The notes below the pieces were generated by a model. The model worked only from the letters and a program-made list of their open reading frames with translations. It did no database searches and had not been told where the DNA came from. Shown here piece by piece: positions 1-13,413 of a DNA stretch of 36,981 nucleotides (positions within the stretch are counted from its first letter, which is position 1; each line of letters opens with the position of its first letter). The DNA is taken from IMG/VR virus record IMGVR_UViG_2703718854_000003; one strand, written 5' to 3'. The stretch comes from a virus (Duplodnaviria; Heunggongvirae; Uroviricota; Caudoviricetes). The position numbers were made by a program, and so were the translations under genes.

Positions 1-1053
1 TTACGGGGTAATGCCAACCGCTGCCGCCACTTTGTCGCCACTTGGCAGCGTTGCCAGAGGATTGAAACGGAGCGCCGTTTCCAGATGATCCGGTGCTAGA
101 TGTGCGTAACGCATAGTCATTTTTATGTCGTGATGTCCGAGGATTTTTTGCAAAGCAAGGATATTTCCACCCGACATCATGAAATGCGCCGCAAACGTAT
201 GGCGCAGAACGTGTGTCAGTTGACCGCGAGGGAGCACGATAGACGTTTTTCCCATCACAGATAAAAATTGAAAATAGCAGTCTGTGAAGAAATTGAACCC
301 ATCAAGCGCCATGATCTCTTCGTAAAGTTCTTTACTGATAGGGATGCTTCTGTTTTTCTTCCCCTTCGTTCTTACAAAGGTAATTCGGTATTTGGTCACC
401 TGTGAGCGGGTAAGATTTACAGCTTCACGCCAGCGTGCGCCTGTGCTTAAGCATATCTTAACTACCAGTGCCAGAATTGGGTCCTGACGTTTGCAATCAG
501 CCAGTAATTCAACAATCTGCTCATGGGTAAGCCATGCCATCTCTTTTTCTGCGATGGTGAATTTTCGCATGTTCTCCAGTGGGTTCGGATACGACCATTC
601 GCCCAGGCGGGATAGTTCGCTAAAAACACTACTAAGATAGCTTTGCTCCAGGTTAATGGTGACCGGGCTTGCTCCTTTCTTCCATTTTTCGCTGAAGTAG
701 ATCTCTCCTGTCAGGCGTTTATCTCGATAGTGGGCAAACATTTTAGAGGTGAGATCGGTTGCAATGGGATTTCCCAGAGCGTCAACCATCAACAGCAATT
801 TGTCATAGACATGCTGCCCAGCTGTCAGAGATTTACCATGTAGTTTGAACCATAGCTCAACCACGTCTTTCAGTGTTCGACGATCCACTGATTCACCCAG
901 CCAGGGTTTTGCTTCGGTTTCTTCCATCGTGTGACGCTCAAAAGCCAGAGCTTCGCCTTTGGTGGCGAATTGTTTACGCACACGACGTCCACTACGTCCG
1001 GCAGGGTAACATTCGCAAAGCCATTTTCCTGTGGTGAGTTTTCGTACTGCCAT
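1..1053 (-). CDS. int: Tyrosine recombinase / phage integrase (complete, 350 aa)
   Basis: C-terminal catalytic region LRHTFAAHFMMSGGNILALQKILGHHDIKMTMRYAHL shows the R..H-x-x-R..Y pattern of tyrosine integrases. Stop codon occupies window positions 1-3; position is next to the immunity region as in P2/186. Confidence 0.9.
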   Translation of the reverse strand: MAVRKLTTGKWLCECYPAGRSGRRVRKQFATKGEALAFERHTMEETEAKPWLGESVDRRTLKDVVELWFKLHGKSLTAGQHVYDKLLLMVDALGNPIATDLTSKMFAHYRDKRLTGEIYFSEKWKKGASPVTINLEQSYLSSVFSELSRLGEWSYPNPLENMRKFTIAEKEMAWLTHEQIVELLADCKRQDPILALVVKICLSTGARWREAVNLTRSQVTKYRITFVRTKGKKNRSIPISKELYEEIMALDGFNFFTDCYFQFLSVMGKTSIVLPRGQLTHVLRHTFAAHFMMSGGNILALQKILGHHDIKMTMRYAHLAPDHLETALRFNPLATLPSGDKVAAAVGITP

Positions 1054-1078
1054 AAAAAAGCCCTCATATCAGAGGGCT
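1053..1078 (-). terminator. Intrinsic terminator-like hairpin on minus strand (stem agccctc/gagggct, then T-run) immediately upstream of the int start codon
   Basis: Read on the minus strand: AGCCCTC-TGATAT-GAGGGCT-TTTTTT-ATG(int). The GAGGG arm doubles as the only SD-like sequence for int. Confidence 0.5.
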
Positions 1079-1139
1079 AAATTTAACTGTATATTTAAAC
1101 AGTTATCAATGTATGTTTAGGGTGAAATAAACATTGGCC

Positions 1140-2129
1140 TCACTCCTGTGCTTTTTCAGCGGTACTTGGCTTTAGTTTTTCTTTGGTTGAATCCCATAAA
1201 GATTGGATTCCCGGAGGGAGTTCTGTTTTGTCAGAAAATGCAGAGTTACCAGACATATTCCAGTCTTTAAAGACTAACACAGCATCTTCTTTTGTTGACG
1301 TGGAACCATAAATTTGCAGGAATACTTGCCCAAACATTAGTGCATGTCTTCTATCTTTTCTCAAAATTGATTCATGGGTATATTTTTTAGAGTTGCCAAG
1401 GCAAATATATGCTAGCCAAGAAAGAATGGAAATACCAATTAAACCACGTGTGAAAAAATAAAATAGCTCAAAGCCTTTAACATTGTTGAAGTCAATTGTG
1501 GCGTAGAGTGTATAAAATGATGCACATACAGCAAGTAGCCCGAAAATGCAGCCAGTAAAAGCCCATACTTGCGACATTCTAATGAAATATAAGTCATCTG
1601 AACTTAGTTCACTTTTAACGCTATCGACATATCCTGGTATTTTCTCATCAATCCTTTCTTGTTGTACTCGGCTTTGTAATTCGCTGTTAGAAGCTTCAAG
1701 TTGCTTTATTCTAGATACGGCTTGCTCAATAATTGCTTCTTTTTCAGAATTTAGTTTTTCTAAATTCTCATTCCGAAGATGTAACGTAGCTTTGGACTCT
1801 TCAGCCTCCAATAAACGTTTGGTATATGATCGCATTATCTCTCGAAGATGTTTTTGTTCTTTTATTAATTCATCTATCTTATTGTTTTCATTAATAAAAA
1901 TATCTCCAGCTTTATCGCTGTAGTTCATTTTTTCTTGCTGGGCTAATTTCCAGTAGTATTCTCTGAATTTATCAAGTTCACCTTTATTTAATAAGTCGAC
2001 TAAGTAGGCGCGTTCATTTTCATTAAATTTATGCAGATTTTCATTTAAAATATTATAAAGATCTTTCCATTCGCAATTAACTTTTTCAACATAATCGTTG
2101 TTTTCATTTTTTTTATTTTCAGAATTCAT
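1140..2129 (-). CDS. Hypothetical protein with N-terminal coiled-coil and C-terminal transmembrane helices; AT-rich cargo gene directly downstream of cI
   Basis: ORF-track frame 1140-2207; start placed at internal ATG (MNSENKK...) preceded by AAAGGAA, 10 nt after the CI stop. Heptad-like charged region (EKLNSEKEAIIEQAVSRIKQLEASNSELQ) followed by hydrophobic segments (WAFTGCIFGLLAVCASFYTLY; LIGISILSWLAYICLG). No family recognised. Confidence 0.6.
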   Translation of the reverse strand: MNSENKKNENNDYVEKVNCEWKDLYNILNENLHKFNENERAYLVDLLNKGELDKFREYYWKLAQQEKMNYSDKAGDIFINENNKIDELIKEQKHLREIMRSYTKRLLEAEESKATLHLRNENLEKLNSEKEAIIEQAVSRIKQLEASNSELQSRVQQERIDEKIPGYVDSVKSELSSDDLYFIRMSQVWAFTGCIFGLLAVCASFYTLYATIDFNNVKGFELFYFFTRGLIGISILSWLAYICLGNSKKYTHESILRKDRRHALMFGQVFLQIYGSTSTKEDAVLVFKDWNMSGNSAFSDKTELPPGIQSLWDSTKEKLKPSTAEKAQE

Positions 2130-2139
2130 GTATGTTCCT

Positions 2140-3078
2140 TTAAATTTCCTTTGAAAAAACGCAACAACATTTTGCGATGGTTGTAATGTCTTCAAGCTTA
2201 CAAACAAAATCAGTTGTATCTGATGTGATTTTTACTTTTCCAACTGGAATTCTTGTTAATTTTCTTAAACTTACTTTACCTTCAATCTCAATCAACCAAC
2301 TACCATCTGAAACATCATCATATTCTGTATCTGCAATAAAGGTTTTTCCTTCTGCGGTAACTCCAATAGGTTTTTTCAATCCGGAAGGTATAAGCGTCTT
2401 GTCAAATGCTAAGTAGCCTTCATCATGTAATTTACCGTCAATGATTGTTTGGTGTTTAAGTTGGGCTACAGAGCTGGAATTATCGATAAATTTGGGGCCA
2501 TTGCCGTTTGTGAGCCAGAGTAATGAAGTTCCTGTTTCAAGAGCGCATTGAATGATCCAATCGCTAGGAAACGTGTCTCGTAAGTACCTGTTTGCTACAG
2601 TGCTTTTTGAAACCTGCAAATGGTTTGCTAGGGCTTGTCGGGTGCTAAAGCCGTAGGCTGCGACTAAGCGATCAATTGCCGCCTTCCCTCCTTTATTAGG
2701 ATTTATGCTGGTCTCGATTGGGAACTTTTGGGCTATTGAGTTAGTTCTATCCAGGTCATCAGATTTGGTATGGGCTAAACGTTCATCATTTAATAAAACT
2801 GAGGATGATTCACAGCTGATTCCCGATGCCAACCAGTCGATAGATGCGCCGGTCTCTATACTGCAAATTATCACCCAGTCAGCAGGAAATGTGTCACGAG
2901 CATACCTGTTAGCCATCGTGCTTTGTGAGATACCCAGATGATTGCAAAATGCTTGCCGCGAAGTAAAACCATACGCAACAAGTATACGCTCAATTACTTT
3001 CTGTCCCCCACGGTTTTGCATTATTGAAGTTTTTAGACTCTCGCTAATATGGCGAAATGTGTTTTTTTGAGTTGACAT
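2140..3078 (-). CDS. cI: CI-type immunity repressor (phage 186 CI family) with tandemly duplicated N-terminal HTH domain
   Basis: Two consecutive copies of the motif (V/A)IxRLVAAYGF(T/S)(S/T)RQA..NHL..S.ST.ANRY.RDTFP.DW(I/V)I.C(S/A).ETG.S..WL (roughly aa 27-84 and 134-191), then a C-terminal domain (SDGSWLIEIEGKVSLRKLTRIPVGKV) resembling 186 CI as I recall it. Divergent from the Apl-like gene. Confidence 0.75.
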   Translation of the reverse strand: MSTQKNTFRHISESLKTSIMQNRGGQKVIERILVAYGFTSRQAFCNHLGISQSTMANRYARDTFPADWVIICSIETGASIDWLASGISCESSSVLLNDERLAHTKSDDLDRTNSIAQKFPIETSINPNKGGKAAIDRLVAAYGFSTRQALANHLQVSKSTVANRYLRDTFPSDWIIQCALETGTSLLWLTNGNGPKFIDNSSSVAQLKHQTIIDGKLHDEGYLAFDKTLIPSGLKKPIGVTAEGKTFIADTEYDDVSDGSWLIEIEGKVSLRKLTRIPVGKVKITSDTTDFVCKLEDITTIAKCCCVFSKEI

Positions 3079-3166
3079 AACCGTTATGAGATCCTAATCT
3101 CCGTTTTGTGAAGTTCTGGTCACAATTCAAACCGGCTCACCACAAGCCAATAGGAGATGTTGCATC
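3079..3166. promoter_or_regulatory. Lysis-lysogeny switch intergenic region (divergent repressor/early promoters and operators, not resolved)
   Basis: 88-bp gap between divergent cI and apl/cox-like genes; contains short inverted repeat GAGAT-N4-ATCTC. Promoter and operator positions not determined. Confidence 0.4.
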
Positions 3167-4971: not shown

Positions 4972-5825
4972 GCACCATCCTGAAATGGGCGGGAAATAAA
5001 ACCGCCATTATGTCCGAACTGAAAAAACACCTTCCTGCTGGCCCGCGACTGGTTGAACCTTTCGCGGGTTCCTGTGCTGTGATGATGGAGACGGATTACC
5101 CCAGCTATCTTGTTGCGGATATTAATCCTGATTTAATCAACCTCTATAAAAAGGTTGCTGCTGATTGCGAGGCGTTTATATCTCGTGCCAGAGCTTTATT
5201 TGAGGAAGCAAACAGGGAGTTGGCTTATTACAACATAAGACAGGAGTTTAATTACTCCACTGAAATTACTGATTTCATGAAAGCGGTATATTTCCTGTAT
5301 CTCAATCGTCATGGTTACCGTGGGTTATGTCGTTATAACAAGAGCGGGCATTTCAACATTCCATACGGTAATTATAAAAATCCGTATTTCCCTGAAAAAG
5401 AAATTCGCGCATTTGCAGAGAAAGCCCAGCAAGCAACGTTTATCTGCGCCAGCTTTGATGAAACGCTGGCGATGCTGCAGGTGGGGGATGTGGTGTATTG
5501 CGATCCGCCTTATGACGGTACGTTTTCCGGCTATCACACTAACGGCTTCACTGAAGATGACCAGTATCACCTGGCATCTGTTCTTGAATATCGATCATCA
5601 GAAGGTCATCCAGTCATTGTTTCTAACAGTGACACATCCCTGATCCGTTCGCTGTATCGAAATTTCACTCACCACTACATCAAGGCAAAACGCAGCATCG
5701 GCGTGTCGGCTGGCGAGAGTAAATCTGCAACAGAAATCATCGCTGTTTCTGGGGCGCGCTGCTGGGTGGGATTTGATCCTTCGCGTGGCGTGGATAGTTC
5801 TGCCGTGTACGGAGTGCGTGCATGA
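4968..5825 (+). CDS. dam: DNA adenine methyltransferase (Dam-like, GATC N6-adenine MTase family)
   Basis: N-terminal SAM-binding motif LKWAGNK...PFAGSCAV and catalytic DPPY motif (VVYCDPPY). Start chosen at ATG 4968 overlapping the upstream stop (ATGA), not the ORF-track start 4908. Confidence 0.85.
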
Positions 5826-8236
5826 GCCATGCTGATATGAACAACTGCAGCGGCTTTAACGAGGCCGCCGCAGCATTCTCATGGAACAGCCCGAAAAAGG
5901 CTATTAACCCTTATCTGGACCTGGCGGAAGTTGCGCCGGTTTCTGCGCTTTCAAACCTGATCACTCTGTACGCTGCCGATAACGAGCAGGAACAACTGCG
6001 CCGCGAGGCACTGAGTGATCAGGTTTGGGAGCGTTATTTCTTTAATGAATCCCGTGATCCTGTCCAGCGCGAAATGGAGCAGGATAAGTTCATTAGCCGG
6101 GCAAAGTTGGCGCATGAGCAGCAGCGTTTTAACCCGGACATGGTCATTCTGGCAGACGTTAACGCCCAGCCTTCCCATATCAGCAGGCCGCTGATGCAAC
6201 GTATTGAATACTTCAGCAGCCTTGGCAGGCCAAAGGCTTATTCCCGCTATTTACGTGAGACGATTAAGCCATGTCTGGAACGGCTGGAGCATGTACGCGA
6301 CAGTCAGCTATCCACTTCTTTTCGCTTTATGGCAAGCCATGAAGGGCTGGACGGCCTGCTGATTCTGCCTGAAATGAGTCAGGATCAGGTGAAACGCCTG
6401 TCCACCCTTGTTGCTGCGCATATGAGCATGTGCCTTGATGCAGCTTGTGGCGATTTGTATGCCACCGATGACGTTAAGCCAGAAGAAATCCGCAAGACAT
6501 GGGAAAAGGTGGCAGCAGAAACCCTGCGACTGGATGTCATACCGCCTGCGTTTGAGCAACTCCGCCGGAAAAGAAACCGCCGTAAACCCGTGCCCTATGA
6601 ACTCATTCCGGGTTCGCTGGCGCGTATGTTGTGCGCCGATTGGTGGTACCGGAAATTATGGAAGATGCGTTGCGAATGGCGGGAAGAGCAGTTGCGTGCT
6701 GTTTGCCTGGTCAGCAAAAAAGCATCTCCCTATGTCAGCTATGAAGCCATGATGCATAAACGTGAGCAGCGCCGTAAGTCGCTGGAGTTTTTCCGTTCTC
6801 ATGAACTGGTGAACGAAGACGGCGACACGCTGGACATGGAGGATGTGGTAAACGCCAGCAGCAGCAACCCTGCGCATCGCCGCAATGAGATGATGGCCTG
6901 TGTTAAAGGTCTGGAGCTTATCGCGGAAATGCGCGGTGACTGCGCCGTTTTCTACACCATCACCTGTCCGTCACGTTTCCATTCCACGCTAAATAACGGC
7001 AGGCCCAACCCGACCTGGACAAATACGACGGTAAGACAAAGCAGTGATTATCTGGTCGGCATGTTTGCTGCATTTCGTAAGGCGATGCACAAAGCCGGAT
7101 TGCGCTGGTATGGCGTGCGGGTGGCTGAGCCGCATCATGACGGTACAGTTCACTGGCACCTGTTGTGTTTTATGCGCAAAAAAGATCGCCGCACCATTAC
7201 TGCTTTGTTGCGTAAGTTTGCCATTCGTGAAGACCGCGAGGAGCTGGGTAATAACACGGGACCACGCTTTAAGTCTGAGCTGATAAACCCGCGCAAAGGT
7301 ACGCCAACAAGCTACATCGCGAAATACATCAGTAAGAACATTGACGGGCGTGGTCTGGCTGGCGAGATCAGCAAGGAAACGGGTAAATCCCTGCGTGATA
7401 ACGCTGAATACGTTAATGCCTGGGCGTCTCTGCATCGTGTTCAGCAATTCCGCTTCTTTGGCATTCCGGGGCGTCAGGCTTACCGTGAACTGCGATTGCT
7501 GGCTGGTCAGGCGGCAAGGCAACAGGGGGACAAAAAAGCAGGTGCGCCGGTACTGGATAACCCGCGCCTTGATGCAATCCTGGCTGCTGCTGATGCTGGT
7601 TGTTTTGCCACCTACATCATGAAGCAGGGCGGCGTACTGGTTCCCCGCAAATATCACCTCATCAGAACTGCTTATGAAATCAACGAAGAACCGACCGCAT
7701 ATGGCGATCACGGTATTCGTATTTATGGCATCTGGTCACCCATTGCAGAGGGCAAGATCTGCACTCATGCGGTGAAGTGGAAAATGGTTCGTAAGGCCGT
7801 TGACGTTCAGGAGGCGGCAGCCGACCAGGGCGCTTGCGCCCCTTGGACTCGTGGCAATAACTGTCCCCTTGCTGAAAATTTGTACCAACAAGGGAAAGAC
7901 AAATCAGCTGATGGGGATACCAGAACGGATATCACCCGTATGGATGACAAGGAGTTGCACGATTACCTGCACAGTATGAACAAAAAAGAGCGCCGGGAAC
8001 TGGCTGCAAGGTTACGCCTGGTGAAACCGAAACGGCGTAGAGACTACAAACAGCGAATTACAGACCATCAACGACAGCAGCTCGTCTATGAACTGAAGTC
8101 CAGAGGATTTGATGGCAGCGAGAAAGAGGTCGATTTACTCCTTCGCGGCGGCAGCATTCCGTCAGGAGCAGGCCTGCGTATCTTCTATCGGAACCAGCGT
8201 TTGCAGGAAGATGATAAGTGGCGGAACCTGTATTAA
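5822..8236 (+). CDS. A: Rolling-circle replication initiator endonuclease (P2 gpA family)
   Basis: 804 aa; HUH-type motif [10 protein letters not shown] and active-site tyrosine motif [12 protein letters not shown]; position after the early operon as in P2/186. Confidence 0.85.
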
Positions 8237-8328
8237 TTACGCGGGTTAACAATTCGTGCTCTTAATAATACCCGGCATATCAGGCTGATGAACGTAAAAA
8301 AACGTTTTACATCAGTAAGATTATTATA

Positions 8329-8348
8329 TACTGTAAATATTAACAGTG
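8329..8348 (+). promoter_or_regulatory. LexA box (SOS operator) overlapping a sigma70-like promoter
   Basis: TACTGTAAATATTAACAGTG matches CTGT-N8-ACAG exactly (CTGT 8331-8334, ACAG 8343-8346); TTTACA (8306-8311) and TATACT (8327-8332) are candidate -35/-10 elements. Confidence 0.7.
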
Positions 8349-8390
8349 GTTATGCATACAGTATTGCTTGTGGTGTCATAGGAGGAAAGA

Positions 8391-8578
8391 TGCAGGACTA
8401 TTTTTGGGAGTCTTTGAAGCTCCAACGCATTGATTTTTTTCTTAAGCTTGTAGCGGCTAGTGAGTGTAGTGATGAAGAGAAGGGGTTGGCCCTGCAGTGG
8501 GTTTCTGAACTGACAGATGAACTCATGGCAAAAATCAGAAGCCACGAATACAACCGCTCAATGGATGTCATCAGCTGA
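8391..8578 (+). CDS. Hypothetical small protein, first gene of the LexA-controlled operon (possible Tum-like antirepressor component)
   Basis: ATG at 8391 preceded by GGAGGAAAG; 62 aa. The Tum-like role is inferred from position only. Confidence 0.45.
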
Positions 8579-8588
8579 GGGGACTTTT

Positions 8589-8822
8589 ATGCGCATTGAA
8601 ATAATGATCGATAAAGAGCAGAAGATTAGCCAGTCTACCCTGGACGCCCTTGAATCCGAGCTTTACCGCAATCTGCGCCCCCTATATCCCAAAACGGTAA
8701 TTCGTATCCGTAAAGGTAGCTCTAACGGTGTGGAACTGACCGGACTGCAACTGGACGAAGAAAGGAAGCAAGTGATGAAAATTATGCAGAAGGTGTGGGA
8801 AGACGACAGCTGGCTGCATTAA
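8589..8822 (+). CDS. DinI-family protein
   Basis: 78 aa; MRIEIMIDKEQ...ALESELYRNL...KIMQKVWEDDSWL resembles E. coli DinI (MRIEV...ALAGELSRRI...EILQETWESADDWF) as I recall it; ATG preceded by GAGGGGA. Confidence 0.7.
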   Translation: MRIEIMIDKEQKISQSTLDALESELYRNLRPLYPKTVIRIRKGSSNGVELTGLQLDEERKQVMKIMQKVWEDDSWLH

Positions 8823-9092
8823 GAAACGTTGCTGGCGTCTGAACTTGCTTCTGGCGTCAGCAAGGTTGAACAACGAGCTATGCGAGGCGTTAGTGTCAAT
8901 TTGTTATCTTAACCACTATATATGCCAGGAAATTAACAGTTCTTAAGAAACCGCTTGCATGATCGAGCGCATTGAACTTAAGTTTAAGTAACGAAATCAA
9001 CAGATGATATTGTTGTCTAAATTTTAAAGATAATCTGTTGAGGTTGTAGGCGTCGGAGTGTAGACTTCCGCGCCATGTGAAAAGGGGGAGTT

Positions 9093-9308
9093 ATGTCAAG
9101 CATCGCCGCATTTAGCCTGGGTAACCCAGTTGAACGTCTGGCAAGGGTTCTTAAAGAGAACCAGGACAAACTCAATCTTAGTAAAGATGGTTTTGTGTCC
9201 GTAGACTTGTCTAACAAAAGAGCAATGGATGCCATCAAGGCACAGATGGATAAGCTTGAAGGCATCAAAACGAGCACTGTAAAAGAGAAAACTAATAGAA
9301 CCAGATAA
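9093..9308 (+). CDS. Hypothetical small protein (71 aa)
   Basis: Strong SD (AAAGGGGGAG) 3-12 nt upstream of ATG; stop overlaps the start of the next gene (TAATG). Confidence 0.55.
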   Translation: MSSIAAFSLGNPVERLARVLKENQDKLNLSKDGFVSVDLSNKRAMDAIKAQMDKLEGIKTSTVKEKTNRTR

Positions 9309-10150
9309 TGGCAACATTACTTTTAGCAGTGATTTTGGTTAGTGGTTTTATTTATGTAAACCTATCACTTTCAACAAGATACCGATATAAGCGTTCCAAC
9401 GGCTGGGACGCTTATTTTTTTGTGGCTGCCTGGGGTATCGTTTTTTTTCTCCTTGGCGGTTTTTTCACCTTTATTTTGAACGTCAGCGGAGGGTTTCGTT
9501 GGCTGGCTAATGCCTTGAATCTAACACCTGACAGTTTTAATGGCATGTTGTCTTCATCGAAAGACAAACTTCAAAGAATAAATGAAATCAAACAGATAGC
9601 ATGGGTTATGATTTCAATTGTTCTCGCTGCGATTTCAGGTTTTGGAAATAAGTTACGCACATCACGTGGAGATCGTCGCTGGGATGCCTTAGCTAAAGCT
9701 GTGGGTAATAACGCTTTCGAATCATTACTCATGGAAGCGTCCGCAAGACAGTTTCCGATCATAGCAACTCTGTCGTCTCGCAAAATCTATGTTGGTCTTG
9801 TTACTTGTCCGGCGTTAGAAAACGGGCTTTCAGAACACCTTGAACTTCTCCCGATGTTAAGCGGATATCGGGATAAAGATGATCTAACGATTAGTATCAC
9901 GACTAACTATCACCAACATTATCTTGATAGTGGTGTGATAAGTGGAATGTCTCGGCTTAATATCGAAGATTTCCGTGTGCTCATACCAAAAGATGAGGTT
10001 GAAACAATTTCGTTTTTTGATACTGAGACATATAACAAATTTAAAGAAAATGAAGCCAGGGATAGAAAGAACTGTCGAAAGATTGGTAGTAAAAGTGCAT
10101 CTTCGCGCAGCAAGCGTGCAGCAGATGCTGAGTCAAATGATCGTGCATGA
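9308..10150 (+). CDS. Hypothetical membrane protein (three N-terminal TM helices plus C-terminal soluble domain)
   Basis: Hydrophobic segments LLLAVILVSGFIYV, FFVAAWGIVFFLLGGFFTFIL, IAWVMISIVLAAISGF; translationally coupled to the 71-aa ORF; followed by an intrinsic terminator. Confidence 0.6.
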   Translation: MATLLLAVILVSGFIYVNLSLSTRYRYKRSNGWDAYFFVAAWGIVFFLLGGFFTFILNVSGGFRWLANALNLTPDSFNGMLSSSKDKLQRINEIKQIAWVMISIVLAAISGFGNKLRTSRGDRRWDALAKAVGNNAFESLLMEASARQFPIIATLSSRKIYVGLVTCPALENGLSEHLELLPMLSGYRDKDDLTISITTNYHQHYLDSGVISGMSRLNIEDFRVLIPKDEVETISFFDTETYNKFKENEARDRKNCRKIGSKSASSRSKRAADAESNDRA

Positions 10151-10198
10151 CTATGCTGCATGAGATCGCATGATCGTTTGAGGATCGTTTTTGCTAAG

Positions 10199-10222
10199 GC
10201 CCGCCAGAACTGGCGGGCTTTT
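10199..10222 (+). terminator. Rho-independent terminator
   Basis: GC stem GCCCGCC-AGAACT-GGCGGGC followed by TTTT. Confidence 0.75.
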
Positions 10223-10267
10223 GCGTAGATCATGCACCTGCATGAAAACTACTACATAAAGCGGGCA

Positions 10268-10286
10268 GGCGTGGCGGGGATACGAG
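10268..10286. other. Candidate cos (cohesive-end) core of the prophage
   Basis: GGCGTGGCGGGGATACGAG resembles the P2/186 19-nt cohesive-end sequence as I remember it (GGCG-A/T-GGCGGGGAAAGCA-C/T). Lies in the region where P2 has cos, but is separated from Q by the retron-like cassette. Confidence 0.45.
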
Positions 10287-10319
10287 CGCGCGCTGAGCTG
10301 CATTCACTTGAATAATCCG

Positions 10320-10500
10320 TATGTTAGTGCTAGCCTAGCTGTGCCCTTAGCAGGAAAGTACATTCAATATGTTACTTTCTAGTGGTTGGTGTTTAGCCAA
10401 CTCGTATGGATTGCTTGGTATCTCGACACAAGTTAGCCTTGTGTCATTTATAGACACCAGGCTAACTTGTGTCTCGGGAACTCTTGTATGGGCATTAATT
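10320..10500 (+). ncRNA. Candidate retron msr-msd non-coding RNA (boundaries approximate)
   Basis: Structured non-coding stretch immediately upstream of the effector-RT pair. Small stem-loops (AAAGTACA-TTCAATA-TGTTACTTT at 10346-10369; GTTGG-TGTTTAG-CCAAC) are followed by a long hairpin at 10425-10473 (14-bp perfect stem GACACAAGTTAGCC/GGCTAACTTGTGTC enclosing inner stem GTGTC/GACAC), typical of an msd. The flanking a1/a2 inverted repeats could not be identified. Confidence 0.45.
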
Positions 10501-10503
10501 GTT

Positions 10504-11421
10504 ATGTGGTTTAAACATCCTAGATATTTACGAGCAAAAGAAAATTTTATTTCAAGTTTTTTTCCAAGTAACTTGAATTCTTTTAATTATATCCTGCCAA
10601 AAGTATTATTTATTTGTGGAGGAGATGAGACTTATTGTTCAAATAGAGGGATGCTGGAAAAATATATTGCTAAGCATCATAAAGAATTTGTTACTTTTCG
10701 AGCAGAATTAGCATGGGAAGTAATTAGCAATTTAGGAACTCATAGTAATGTGAATGCGCTATCACTTGAAGAATGGCTTGCGGATTTTTCTGATGTGGTA
10801 ATTATTCTCGTAGAGAGTTATGGCACTGTAGCTGAATTGGGCGCATTTTCATTAAGTCCTGTTTTACGTAAAAAACTTCTTCCTATATTAGATAAAAAGT
10901 TTGAAAGTCATAAGTCATTTATCAATACAGGGCCCGTAAAATGGGTTGATAGTGAATCCAAATTTGGCCCTACAATCTATACTGAATTTGAGACAATTTT
11001 AACGTGTATGCCTAAAATAAATGAAAGGCTAAATAGGAAAGTTCAATCAAACATAACTAATACAAATTCAATAGGTGATTACAAATATTCACCAAAAATT
11101 TTTTTATTTTTTGTGCTCGTTGTTATATCTTCTTTAGGTCCAATAACAATTCCTGAGATTATTAATATCACAGGTAGGTTGATAAATTATAAAATTAATA
11201 AAAATATTTCATTTGTTGTTTCTATTGGAGTTGCCCTTGGGATTTTTAAGGAAAGTCGATTTGAGGGCGTGACCCATTATTCATGTGTCGATTATATTAA
11301 ATTTTTTAATCATGAAAAGATGAAAGATTTAGTTGAAAGTATTCAACGAAGTAGAGCTAGATCATTATCCGATTTAATAATGATATCTAAATTCAAAGCA
11401 GAATTAGAAAGGATCATGTGA
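10504..11421 (+). CDS. Candidate retron effector: NDT-like (nucleoside deoxyribosyltransferase-like N-glycosidase) domain plus C-terminal putative DNA-binding domain
   Basis: AT-rich gene directly abutting the RT. Motifs KVLFICGGDE and DVVIILVESYGTVAELGAFS resemble NDT-like folds found in type II retron effectors. ORF-track start 10369 overlaps the hairpin, so start placed at in-frame ATG 10504 (10651 also possible). Domain assignment is from motif memory. Confidence 0.5.
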   Translation: MWFKHPRYLRAKENFISSFFPSNLNSFNYILPKVLFICGGDETYCSNRGMLEKYIAKHHKEFVTFRAELAWEVISNLGTHSNVNALSLEEWLADFSDVVIILVESYGTVAELGAFSLSPVLRKKLLPILDKKFESHKSFINTGPVKWVDSESKFGPTIYTEFETILTCMPKINERLNRKVQSNITNTNSIGDYKYSPKIFLFFVLVVISSLGPITIPEIINITGRLINYKINKNISFVVSIGVALGIFKESRFEGVTHYSCVDYIKFFNHEKMKDLVESIQRSRARSLSDLIMISKFKAELERIM

Positions 11422-11422
11422 T

Positions 11423-12352
11423 ATGTTAATTGAGTATCTAGCTAAAGTTTTACTGTTAGAAGCTGATTTTATATTAAAAGTTGCAAATGATGCTAACTCG
11501 CATTATGGTAAATTTTCTGTACCTAAAAAAGGCGGTGGGACAAGAATCGTCTATCAGCCCTCTAAAGAATTAAAAGTTTTGCAGAGATTACTTCATGATA
11601 ATGTTCTGTCGAAATTGCCGATTCATCCAAATGCTGTAGCATATCAGCAGGGTTCATCAGTGTTCAAACATGCAAGCATTCACAAAGCTAAACGTTTTAT
11701 GCTTAAGATGGACTTTGAAGGTTTTTTTGATTCAATTAAGAAAAGTGATGTTGAGAGATTTATAAACGACAACAAGCATTTCTTCAGTGATGATTGGTCA
11801 AAGGATGATACTGATTTGCTGGTGAAAATAGTATGCTTTAACGGGAGACTGACTATGGGTGCTGTTAGTTCCCCTGTGGTAAGCAATGCTATATGCTATG
11901 AATTAGATCATATATTGAATGAATTTTGTCTTTCAAAAGGTATAACATATACACGCTATGCTGATGATATGTACTTCTCAACAAACGAAGAAAATGTATT
12001 GAAGCAAATACCACCTTTTTTACGCTCGAATTTAAAAAATTTGAAATACCCATCAAAACTATGGATTAATAGAAAAAAGACACTGCATATGTCAAAGAAA
12101 AATAAAATGATGGTTACGGGTGTGACTTTGACAACAGATGGTGGAGTATCCTTAGGGAGAGATAAAAAAAGGATGGTTAAATCGCTTATTTTTAAATGGG
12201 AGGCTCTTGATGAGAAGAAAAGGCTATTTCTTCAAGGATATTTATCGTATTGCAAAAGTGTTGAGCCATTATTTATTAATAGGCTTTGTGCGAAATATTC
12301 ATCAGAGCTGATTGATGAAATCCAGAGATATCAACCTGTAGTATCAGAATAA
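11423..12352 (+). CDS. Retron-type reverse transcriptase
   Basis: RT motifs in order: PKKGGGTRIVYQPS (motif 1/2), LKMDFEGFFDSI (motif A), SSPVVSN (motif B'), YTRYADDMYF (motif C, YADD) and the retron-typical VTG triplet (KMMVTGVTL). About 309 aa, similar in layout to the Ec86 RT. AAAGGA SD; start 2 nt after the effector stop. Confidence 0.8.
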   Translation: MLIEYLAKVLLLEADFILKVANDANSHYGKFSVPKKGGGTRIVYQPSKELKVLQRLLHDNVLSKLPIHPNAVAYQQGSSVFKHASIHKAKRFMLKMDFEGFFDSIKKSDVERFINDNKHFFSDDWSKDDTDLLVKIVCFNGRLTMGAVSSPVVSNAICYELDHILNEFCLSKGITYTRYADDMYFSTNEENVLKQIPPFLRSNLKNLKYPSKLWINRKKTLHMSKKNKMMVTGVTLTTDGGVSLGRDKKRMVKSLIFKWEALDEKKRLFLQGYLSYCKSVEPLFINRLCAKYSSELIDEIQRYQPVVSE

Positions 12353-12358
12353 CGTGTG

Positions 12359-12389
12359 TGCGCATGAAAATTTCCATGCGCATTTTCTT
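12359..12389 (+). terminator. Intrinsic terminator after the retron-like operon (overlaps the 3' end of Q)
   Basis: Stem TGCGCATG/CATGCGCA with 8-nt loop, followed by TTTTCTT on the plus strand. Confidence 0.6.
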
Positions 12390-13413
12390 AAAAACAGTAG
12401 TCATTAAATGAAATAATTTCTTTTCCAGCCCAGTTATTCAGTGATTCAAAATTCTTTTGCAATGGCATTAACTCATTCCGCACAAACACTTTGCTTGCCT
12501 TCTCCACATCCCCAAATCCCCCAACACTATTAGGCATAATCCCCATCATCTGCGGCGGCACGCGGTGTGCCGCCATCATGTCATCGCGACTAACATTTTT
12601 GATATTCAAAAACTCATCCTTCGCCGCGACTTCTGACAATGGGATGATCTGAAGCCCGTCTTTTTTGCCGTTAGGCGAGTACATAAACAGGTTGCGGAAG
12701 TTGCCTGGCCCTTTGGCGCTTTTCATCGCGTTGCGGAGGTTGTTCACATCCTCCTGGTTCTGAGCGGCATCGGTCATGTACATTATGAATCCTGCATGGC
12801 TGCCATTAATATAATATTTGCGTCGGAACAGCGTGGCGGACTCGTTGAGCAGGGCTGACGGAATGGCAGAAAGATAACCGGGCAGGCCGTAGATCTCCTG
12901 GTTGATATCGGGTTCCATCAGATGAAAGATGCTGCCTTTCGTGAACTGATACGGCTGGGTTGTCATGCCGTATTGCACAAACCAGTAGGTATCCAGGTCT
13001 AACCCACGTCGGGTGTATTTTGCCAGAGCAGGCTCAAGGGCGATAACTTCACCGAACCGGTTCGTGCGTTTCTCCAGGTATGCGTTACCAAATACCAGAT
13101 AGTCCTGCACAAAACGTGAAAAAGCCTGCTGGCTGAGAAGCGGGTGAGGGATGTAGGTACTGGTCAGAATGTTGCATTTCACCGCAATTGGTGAACTGTG
13201 ATGCACGGCAGCGCGGAAGGTTCGCGCCAGTCCGTCAAAACTCACTGGCGGCTCATACCAGCGATCTGTCTGTACGCATTCCACATAGTCCAGCAGTTCG
13301 CGGCGGTCCAGAACAGGAACGGGATCGCCAAAGCTGAATGCTTCGGCTGAAGTCTGGCTTTTATGCTGAATCTGGTTCGTCGACACAGCGCGGTTCTTCT
13401 TACTCTTTCCCAT
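12388..13413 (-). CDS. Q: Portal protein (P2 gpQ-like)
   Basis: About 341 aa, N-terminus MGKSKKNR...; lies in the Q-P pair divergent from O-N-M-L as in P2; start chosen at ATG 13413. Confidence 0.8.
   Translation of the reverse strand: MGKSKKNRAVSTNQIQHKSQTSAEAFSFGDPVPVLDRRELLDYVECVQTDRWYEPPVSFDGLARTFRAAVHHSSPIAVKCNILTSTYIPHPLLSQQAFSRFVQDYLVFGNAYLEKRTNRFGEVIALEPALAKYTRRGLDLDTYWFVQYGMTTQPYQFTKGSIFHLMEPDINQEIYGLPGYLSAIPSALLNESATLFRRKYYINGSHAGFIMYMTDAAQNQEDVNNLRNAMKSAKGPGNFRNLFMYSPNGKKDGLQIIPLSEVAAKDEFLNIKNVSRDDMMAAHRVPPQMMGIMPNSVGGFGDVEKASKVFVRNELMPLQKNFESLNNWAGKEIISFNDYCF

Follow-up and report, generated by a model that had tools for sequence, protein, structure and literature searches.

In phage P2, the genes old and tin occupy a slot on the gene A side of the cohesive-end (cos) site, where they show a presence/absence behavior. 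Other described prophage-borne accessory functions include a membrane protein, among them RexA/RexB, HK97 gp15 and SieB; the HK97 gp15 moron lies within the tail gene cluster. Here, we focus on a pair of overlapping genes found in the IMG/VR virus record IMGVR_UViG_2703718854_000003 (Caudoviricetes; 36,981 nucleotides of one strand, hereafter the window). The upstream gene (9093-9308, plus strand) encodes a soluble protein of 71 amino acids (aa) and the downstream gene (9308-10150) an inner-membrane protein of 280 aa. The pair resembles old and tin, and other validated systems of the P2/P4 hotspots (Rousset et al., 2022), in its slot and in its presence/absence behavior, but is unrelated to them in sequence and in domains (Old is an ATPase/TOPRIM protein) and lies in the orientation opposite to old and tin. 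With RexA/RexB, HK97 gp15 and SieB it shares carriage by a prophage as an accessory and the presence of a membrane protein, and one of its relatives lies in a lambdoid tail cluster, as does gp15. However, PADLOC, Pfam and the PHROG functional categories gave no homology to any of the three, and the soluble partner, which is large in lambda RexAB, is only 55-90 aa long in the family described here.

The membrane protein invites a further comparison. MscS has three N-terminal transmembrane (TM) helices followed by a cytoplasmic Sm-like beta domain and is of similar size, so that the two proteins are alike in gross architecture. The likeness is one of analogy only; homology to MscS was considered and rejected, with no Pfam match (PF00924 or PF21088) and an hhalign probability of 0.4% against an MscK-type protein (locus L092). 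From the known Sm, LSm and Hfq proteins, the C-terminal domain predicted here differs through its fusion to three TM helices, a 30-residue insert between strands 4 and 5, and an invariant SGYRDKD of its own, with no match to the LSM or Hfq profiles. Our favored reading, to which we assign a probability of roughly 45%, is that the two genes form a conflict module, in which a tightly restrained membrane effector and a small regulator would act in phage conflict.

Conservation of the gene pair

A first-pass annotation of the window, made from its letters alone, had described the two genes as a translationally coupled module with no recognizable function. Its reading of the letters was accurate. 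Both open reading frames (ORFs) lie where it placed them, the stop of the small gene overlaps the start of the membrane gene in a TAATG, and the strong Shine-Dalgarno sequence that it noticed is found as AAAGGGGGAG, 4 nt before the small-gene ATG (Table 1). The 71-aa protein was rightly called soluble, being without a hydrophobic segment (maximum 19-residue Kyte-Doolittle score 0.64), and the three N-terminal TM helices assigned to the 280-aa protein correspond to three hydrophobic segments that are helical in an AlphaFold2 model. Neither protein matches Pfam, NCBIfam or PADLOC, and the PHROG families to which they belong (9843 and 3630) are both of 'unknown function'. RefSeq lists both genes as hypothetical in E. 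coli MS14386, which is 100% identical to the window across a 1.5-kb query (8850-10350). The AlphaFold2 model of the small protein is poor (pLDDT 62.8) and gives the order helix, hairpin, long helix.

Some public records do attach names to these proteins. The names 'multidrug ABC transporter ATPase' and 'YobD' for the 71-aa protein, as well as 'HrcA' for one homologue of the membrane protein, are backed by no profile and are considered spurious. An AbrB/MazE-like antitoxin fold for the small protein, an idea taken from a 'GRG-h-h-V-D' pattern, was without profile or structural support and is not claimed.

From an exhaustive profile search, it was evident that the membrane protein belongs to a large family, with 2,884 clusters at 50% identity (E<=1e-3), 2,012 of them at E<=1e-10, nearly all matched over their full length of 240-340 aa; a word-indexed search yielded just 57 clusters. 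The neighborhoods were compared at 80 genomic loci from Enterobacterales, Aeromonas, Vibrionaceae, Shewanella, Pasteurellaceae, Neisseria, Pseudomonas and Acidobacteria. At almost all of these, an ORF of 55-90 aa lies immediately upstream on the same strand, and the small ORFs share an alignable core that reads approximately '..DG.h.h(N/D)h........h...h..h'. A profile made from the small proteins matched 74 of the 7,375 small ORFs in the 80 loci, in every case immediately ahead of the membrane gene and on its strand. As this profile was built from 40 of these sequences, the other matches and the lack of any match elsewhere constitute an independent control. The gap from the small ORF to the start of the membrane gene ranges from -13 to +35 nt in 69 of the 74 as mapped; the remaining five belong to loci mapped only for the C-terminal half and so likewise precede the membrane gene. 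The pairing of the two genes is far beyond chance. No conserved third gene was found at 30 diverse loci, and the pair is conserved as a unit in Gamma- and Betaproteobacteria and in Acidobacteria.

A swappable cassette beside cos

The borders of the unit can be read from the P2-like phage 500465-1, in which the site is empty. Homology with the window ends at 8893 and restarts at 10143, with 96% identity on each side, and this break delimits a cassette of 1.25 kb, which lies in a P2/186-like prophage with DinI on one side and the cos site on the other. E. coli TUM1881 has the block at 99.6% identity and Klebsiella phage ST15-OXA48phi14.1 at 82%. Beyond the cassette, TGCATGAGATcGCAT at 10157-10171 and AAGCGGGCaGGCGtGGCGGGGA at 10259-10280 match the P2 cos junction collinearly, with the same 102-nt spacing as in P2, which places the cohesive-end sequence at about 10269-10287. 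The pair therefore occupies the old/tin slot on the gene A side of cos, and the gene-A-to-cos interval named by the first-pass annotation was the right one. The position of cos also puts the retron of this prophage on the opposite side, between cos and the portal gene, so that the prophage has cargo on both sides of cos.

One point of that annotation did not survive the comparison. The pair had been credited with its own terminator, but the hairpin at 10196-10221 and its U-run fall inside the cos flank (10143-10293, which folds at -37.3 kcal/mol, z -4.3), and this flank is shared with P2-like phages that have no pair, such as phage 500465-1 (96% identity). Relatives in lambdoid prophages have a terminator of their own directly after the gene, with the same CCCGCTTCGGCGGG hairpin (locus L086, 8803-8820; locus L090, 8839-8858).

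A search of 5,426 complete E. coli genomes gave 1,274 that match the query through its flanks and 52 that carry the pair; the pair is thus missing from about 96% of the E. coli genomes with the same flanks. The cargo between cos and the portal gene varies beside the pair: there is none in TUM1881, a SEFIR protein in Klebsiella phage ST15-OXA48phi14.1, three hypothetical genes in MIN9, a hypothetical gene with a TIR protein in 98-3133, and the retron in the window. The pair is swappable, autonomous cargo, as had been supposed from its position, and is not a core gene of 186-like phages, a finding that would have refuted the proposal of the first-pass annotation. The possibility that it is nonetheless a core replication or packaging gene of these phages, or an accessory of the retron, has position only in its favor, the pair lying in the gene A-cos interval and within 220 nt of the retron cassette. 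The presence/absence pattern, including the empty-site phage, and the position of cos rule out both roles, and we regard either as barely credible. The pair occurs without the retron (TUM1881, MIN9, 98-3133 and the Klebsiella phage), the retron lies across cos, and PADLOC and NCBIfam call a complete retron St85/II-A pair without these two genes. The first-pass annotation had likewise kept the pair apart from the retron-like cassette.

Both proteins have appeared before as accessions in a survey of such cargo, where they are listed as 'hypothetical' (Rousset et al., 2022; PMC9122126, Table S5A) beside SieB, PIN_12 or DUF262 cargo. The pair was not found among the systems tested in that study (Rousset et al., 2022).

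The relatives show how widely the unit travels. Carriage in the P2 hotspot extends over E. coli, Klebsiella, Salmonella phages SEN4/5 and Photorhabdus, with the pair of SEN4/5 located after gene A at the right genome end, and a Shewanella relative adjoins the repressor at one edge of a P2-like prophage. In Enterobacter hormaechei the pair sits in a lambdoid tail cluster between K and I/J, while an E. coli relative (52% identical) has hok on one side and DUF968/RusA/Q on the other in a lambdoid nin region. Pectobacterium has DinI and the pair standing alone among chromosomal genes. A distant pair (about 23% identity; 68 aa and 262 aa) is carried by Salmonella IncC conjugative plasmids, flanked there by an AAA-family ATPase and a DNA methyltransferase region (pSTY1-2010K-1587; locus L098, 5791-6789), and was found in 25 Salmonella plasmid records. 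In the Pseudomonas fluorescens group the pair has a single chromosomal locus with variable neighbors, and there it diverges faster than the flanking genes (69-80% identity vs 84-88% for the flanks). The bias toward mobile elements is clear for Enterobacterales and is not established for the superfamily as a whole.

Two observations concern the retron itself. No Rfam family was found in 8200-12500. The annotated 5' end of the effector ORF (10369-11421) contains an inverted repeat of 21 nt at 10425-10473 (95% complementarity, loop of 7 nt), and family models begin to match the effector no earlier than residue 57 or 76. This repeat probably forms the msd stem of the retron's noncoding RNA, and the effector start has probably been called too far upstream.

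Table 1. Coordinates of the gene pair, its parts and its surroundings in the window.
Feature	Position	Strand	Basis or remark
Small soluble protein, 71 aa	9093-9308	+	ORF; WP_000094764; PHROG 9843 (1.4e-36)
Inner-membrane protein, 280 aa	9308-10150	+	ORF; WP_000212611; PHROG 3630 (3.3e-99)
TAATG, stop of small gene overlapping start of membrane gene	9305-9309	+	Read from sequence
Shine-Dalgarno AAAGGGGGAG	9076-9086	+	4 nt ahead of small-gene ATG; read from sequence
TM region	9308-9643	+	Hydropathy, charge counts; helices in AlphaFold2 model
TM1, residues 1-23	9308-9376	+	Hydropathy, model
TM2, residues 34-63	9407-9496	+	Hydropathy, model
TM3, residues 94-112	9587-9643	+	Hydropathy, model
Predicted Sm/LSm/Hfq-fold domain, residues ~136-236	9713-10015	+	Invariant motif LSGYRDKD
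Terminator-like hairpin AAGCGTTCC-N7-GGGACGCTT + U7, codons 27-38 of membrane gene	9387-9422	+	Terminator scan
Swappable cassette, ~200 nt conserved 5' noncoding sequence and both genes	8894-10142	+	Empty-site comparison
Candidate weak promoter TTGCAT-17-TTAAGT	8955-8983	+	Inferred from conservation
Perfect 10-bp palindrome AACTTAAGTT overlapping candidate -10	8975-8984	+	Conservation
Gene A	5822-8236		
LexA box TACTGTAAATATTAACAGTG	8329-8348	+	Perfect CTGT-N8-ACAG core 8331-8346
62-aa ORF, PHROG 698 (unknown function)	8390-8578	+	
DinI	8589-8822	+	Pfam 1.3e-22; RefSeq annotation
Conserved cos region of P2-like phages	10143-10293		Collinear with P2 cos junction; kept in phage without pair
Retron St85 / type II-A effector and reverse transcriptase	10369-12352		PADLOC, NCBIfam
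Portal gene	12388-	-	

An Sm-like domain and a hairpin within the membrane gene

In the AlphaFold2 model of the 280-aa protein (pLDDT 76.8), the three hydrophobic segments form long helices. Lysine and arginine residues number four in loop 1 and six in the stretch past TM3, and this positive charge fits an N-terminus on the outside and a C-terminus on the inside. The cytoplasmic C-terminal domain is modeled as an Sm/LSm/Hfq fold, with the N-terminal helix and five strongly bent strands by which that fold is defined. Conservation in the family peaks at three residues of strand 2 (K159, Y161, G163), at the LSGYRDKD hairpin (184-191) and at Y201/Y205, and these residues differ from the Sm1/Sm2 and Hfq motifs. 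Remote-homology searches and structure prediction had been proposed for both proteins by the first-pass annotation. Structure prediction supplied an Sm-like domain; Pfam, NCBIfam, PADLOC and PDB profiles name no family. Sequence-profile searches of the PDB returned nothing at E<=10 for the membrane protein and nothing meaningful for the small one, and Foldseek against BFVD gave no viral match across the full length (TMq at most 0.34).

The Sm-like C-terminal domain (residues ~124-260) was also observed inside shorter phage proteins near a genome end. Examples are found in Cronobacter phage phiES15 (218-610), in Pseudomonas phages vB_Pae_U5/U6 (H69-H72) and in PHROG 23864, and they suggest that the domain may exist without the TM region.

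A second unusual feature lies in the RNA. The sole terminator-like site flagged by a scan of 8200-10450 is inside the membrane gene itself, where ATAAGCGTTCC-AACGG-CTGGGACGCTTAT is followed by TTTTTTTG. Hairpin and U-run are kept in 18 relatives, down to 38% protein identity and in P2, lambdoid and chromosomal contexts alike; more distant subfamilies are without the element. In these sequences codon entropy at conserved residues averages 0.33 bits over the hairpin and U-run vs 1.47 bits over 68 columns elsewhere, and the hairpin window has the lowest codon entropy of 69 sliding windows. Four codon columns are invariant within the element and none of the 68 elsewhere, and the only variable codon of the element falls in the loop. 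Pairing is preserved in 98% of cells, and two compensatory double changes, U-A to C-G in Erwinia and U.G to G-C in Aeromonas, both alter the amino acid; 4 of 500 shuffles do as well. By these comparisons of sequence, the hairpin and U-run are under synonymous-site selection. We infer that the hairpin may be an attenuator, through which the small protein would be made in excess of the membrane protein.

A run of eight T residues lies nearby, at 9441-9448 in the codons of TM2. In E. coli MIN9 the run has seven and the membrane gene is split into two ORFs (locus L100, 3959-4800); either the site is prone to slippage or the assembly is in error.

The sequence ahead of the pair is conserved as well. 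Promoter-like blocks are retained in six relatives amid varying noncoding sequence, and the palindrome AACTTAAGTT is invariant in five of the six and nearly so in the sixth. This palindrome may be an operator.

An arrangement of this kind brings to mind a selfish toxin-antitoxin or addiction module, in which a labile antidote and autorepressor, the small protein, would offset a toxin, the membrane protein, that stabilizes the carrier element; any anti-phage effect would be incidental. The pair shares with type II toxin-antitoxin systems the overlap of a small upstream gene with a larger downstream one, a perfect, conserved palindrome at the candidate -10, and a putative device favoring the upstream product, which the intragenic attenuator would be; it is moreover carried on plasmids and prophages, and in one case next to hok. 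However, neither protein has any likeness to the toxin or antitoxin families of Pfam or NCBIfam, no known toxin or antitoxin domain was recognized, and the downstream product is an integral membrane protein. We know of no described toxin-antitoxin system in which an intragenic terminator-like hairpin serves as a stoichiometry device. The frameshifted membrane gene of MIN9 indicates that loss is possible and has little bearing on toxicity. On balance the odds are well against an addiction module.

The predicted fold suggests another alternative: tethered to the membrane, the 280-aa protein would bind RNA or act as a regulator in the manner of Hfq/LSm, with a physiological or lysogenic-conversion role and no killing. 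Hfq binds 3' ends of the hairpin plus U-tail class, and the pair's own mRNA contains a conserved hairpin and U-tail, that is, a 3' end of the Hfq type. Many of the relatives also lie in ordinary chromosomal neighborhoods. The Sm1/Sm2 and Hfq motifs are nevertheless undetected, with the invariant K159, Y161, SGYRDKD, Y201 and Y205 all differing, and the obligatory small partner is left unexplained. Nor would the strong bias toward cargo slots in Enterobacterales be expected of a housekeeping RNA chaperone, and we find this role quite improbable.

A long shot, which combines the two features, is a three-part module centered on RNA. Transcription would mostly stop at the intragenic hairpin and U7, freeing an RNA that could be a ligand of the Sm/Hfq type; a membrane Sm-like ring would hold or sense this hairpin-U7-ended transcript, and the small protein would set the threshold. 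Phage RNA or a DNA end might compete for the ring, and if the transcript were lost or displaced in the course of infection or the SOS response, the TM helices could become membrane-damaging. If true, this would be a new class of Sm-domain-gated membrane immune effector.

SOS linkage and a proposed conflict module

A LexA box lies ahead of the 62-aa ORF and DinI and overlaps a promoter-like TTTACA-15-TATACT. The layout of box, 62-aa ORF and DinI resembles the tum region of phage 186, which is SOS-controlled. No canonical terminator was found from DinI to the pair, the hairpin there being without a U-run, and transcription of the stretch 8329-8822, possibly a unit under SOS control, may run on into the pair. 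Perfect CTGT-N8-ACAG boxes are concentrated 150-1000 nt upstream of the pair, at a density 13 times that in the rest of the loci; the loci with a box include near-duplicates, and the independent lineages number at least five. In three of them, no gene intervenes: the box is 238 nt upstream of the pair in Photorhabdus, 183 nt upstream in Proteus, and directly after gene A in one P2-like prophage.

This linkage is the natural starting point for the view that the pair serves the phage's own induction or lytic program, as an SOS-induced membrane protein co-expressed with DinI upon LexA cleavage. Its effects could then be dissipation of the membrane potential, delay of division, tuning of lysis, or superinfection exclusion during induction only. 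The perfect box at 8331-8346 with no canonical terminator ahead of the pair, the recurrence of boxes in at least five lineages, some of them immediately upstream of the pair, and the DinI-pair linkage retained in the stand-alone Pectobacterium locus are all in line with it. On the other hand, the cassette is dispensable and most P2-like phages are without the pair; the copies in the lambdoid tail and nin regions and on plasmids have no LexA box; and about 200 nt of conserved 5' sequence with a candidate promoter belong to the pair itself. We consider a role in induction unlikely, though one to be kept in mind.

The conflict module that we favor could work by abortive infection, by exclusion or in a toxin-antitoxin-like manner. 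The membrane protein would be the effector, its Sm-like domains assembling into a ring beneath the membrane and its TM helices perturbing the membrane or blocking entry, and the small protein would be the cognate regulator or antidote. The terminator-like hairpin and U-run, 80-115 nt into the membrane ORF, would limit the full-length effector and leave the small protein in excess, while transcription of the pair would be tied to the SOS response in several lineages. In favor of this reading are the swappable status of the cassette, the constancy of the pairing, its carriage in several mobile-element slots, the hairpin as a putative restraint on expression, and the LexA boxes. For the accessory defense or exclusion role that the first-pass annotation had put forward, the evidence is contextual; that annotation had not noticed the Sm-like domain, the size of the family, the intragenic terminator-like element or the upstream operon with its LexA box. 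A published prediction agrees with such a role, as WP_000212611.1 (E. coli assembly GCF_003334235) appears as a 'Predicted novel defense gene' in Table S5 of DefensePredictor, with a mean log-odds of 5.10 (3.92-6.19) at a cut-off of 4 (PMC13092281).

Several findings weigh against it. The same accession is absent from the DefensePredictor tables of tested and validated units (PMC13092281). PADLOC-DB 2.0.0 gave no hits for the small protein and, for the membrane protein, only one at E 0.14 over the TM segments, in a run in which the neighboring retron genes were strongly matched. The DefensePredictor score is not independent of the hotspot position, since the model reportedly takes neighboring genes as input. 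No LSM or Hfq match in Pfam was obtained for the membrane protein at E<=1, so that the canonical Sm RNA-binding motifs are undetected, and the model of the small protein is of low confidence. A consensus scan of the plus strand found no strong sigma-70 promoter upstream of the pair. At the 30 diverse loci the neighbors are mixed and mostly housekeeping, with few defense genes (mads, Ssp, PD-T4-5, methyltransferases), and SOS-linked expression fits a role in prophage induction as well as it fits defense.

The literature offers little to compare with. Neither accession is mentioned in the published paper texts that were searched, and the NAR 2026 and iLund4u papers contain no discussion of the pair. 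Nothing was found on Sm-like TM anti-phage proteins, nor was any description of the combination of three TM helices with an Sm-like domain.

If the pair is a conflict module, it would add a membrane-anchored Sm-like fold to the effectors of phage defense and exclusion, together with a large family (some 2,900 clusters at 50% identity) for which Pfam, NCBIfam and PADLOC have no model. The recurrence of this cargo on P2-like, lambdoid and IncC elements of E. coli, Salmonella and Klebsiella would then be accounted for as well. The intragenic element provides a testable case of synonymous-site selection restraining a membrane protein, and the recurrent LexA boxes tie the module to the SOS response. 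Should the function prove to be nondefensive, the pair would still point to a class of membrane-tethered Sm-like proteins that is widespread.

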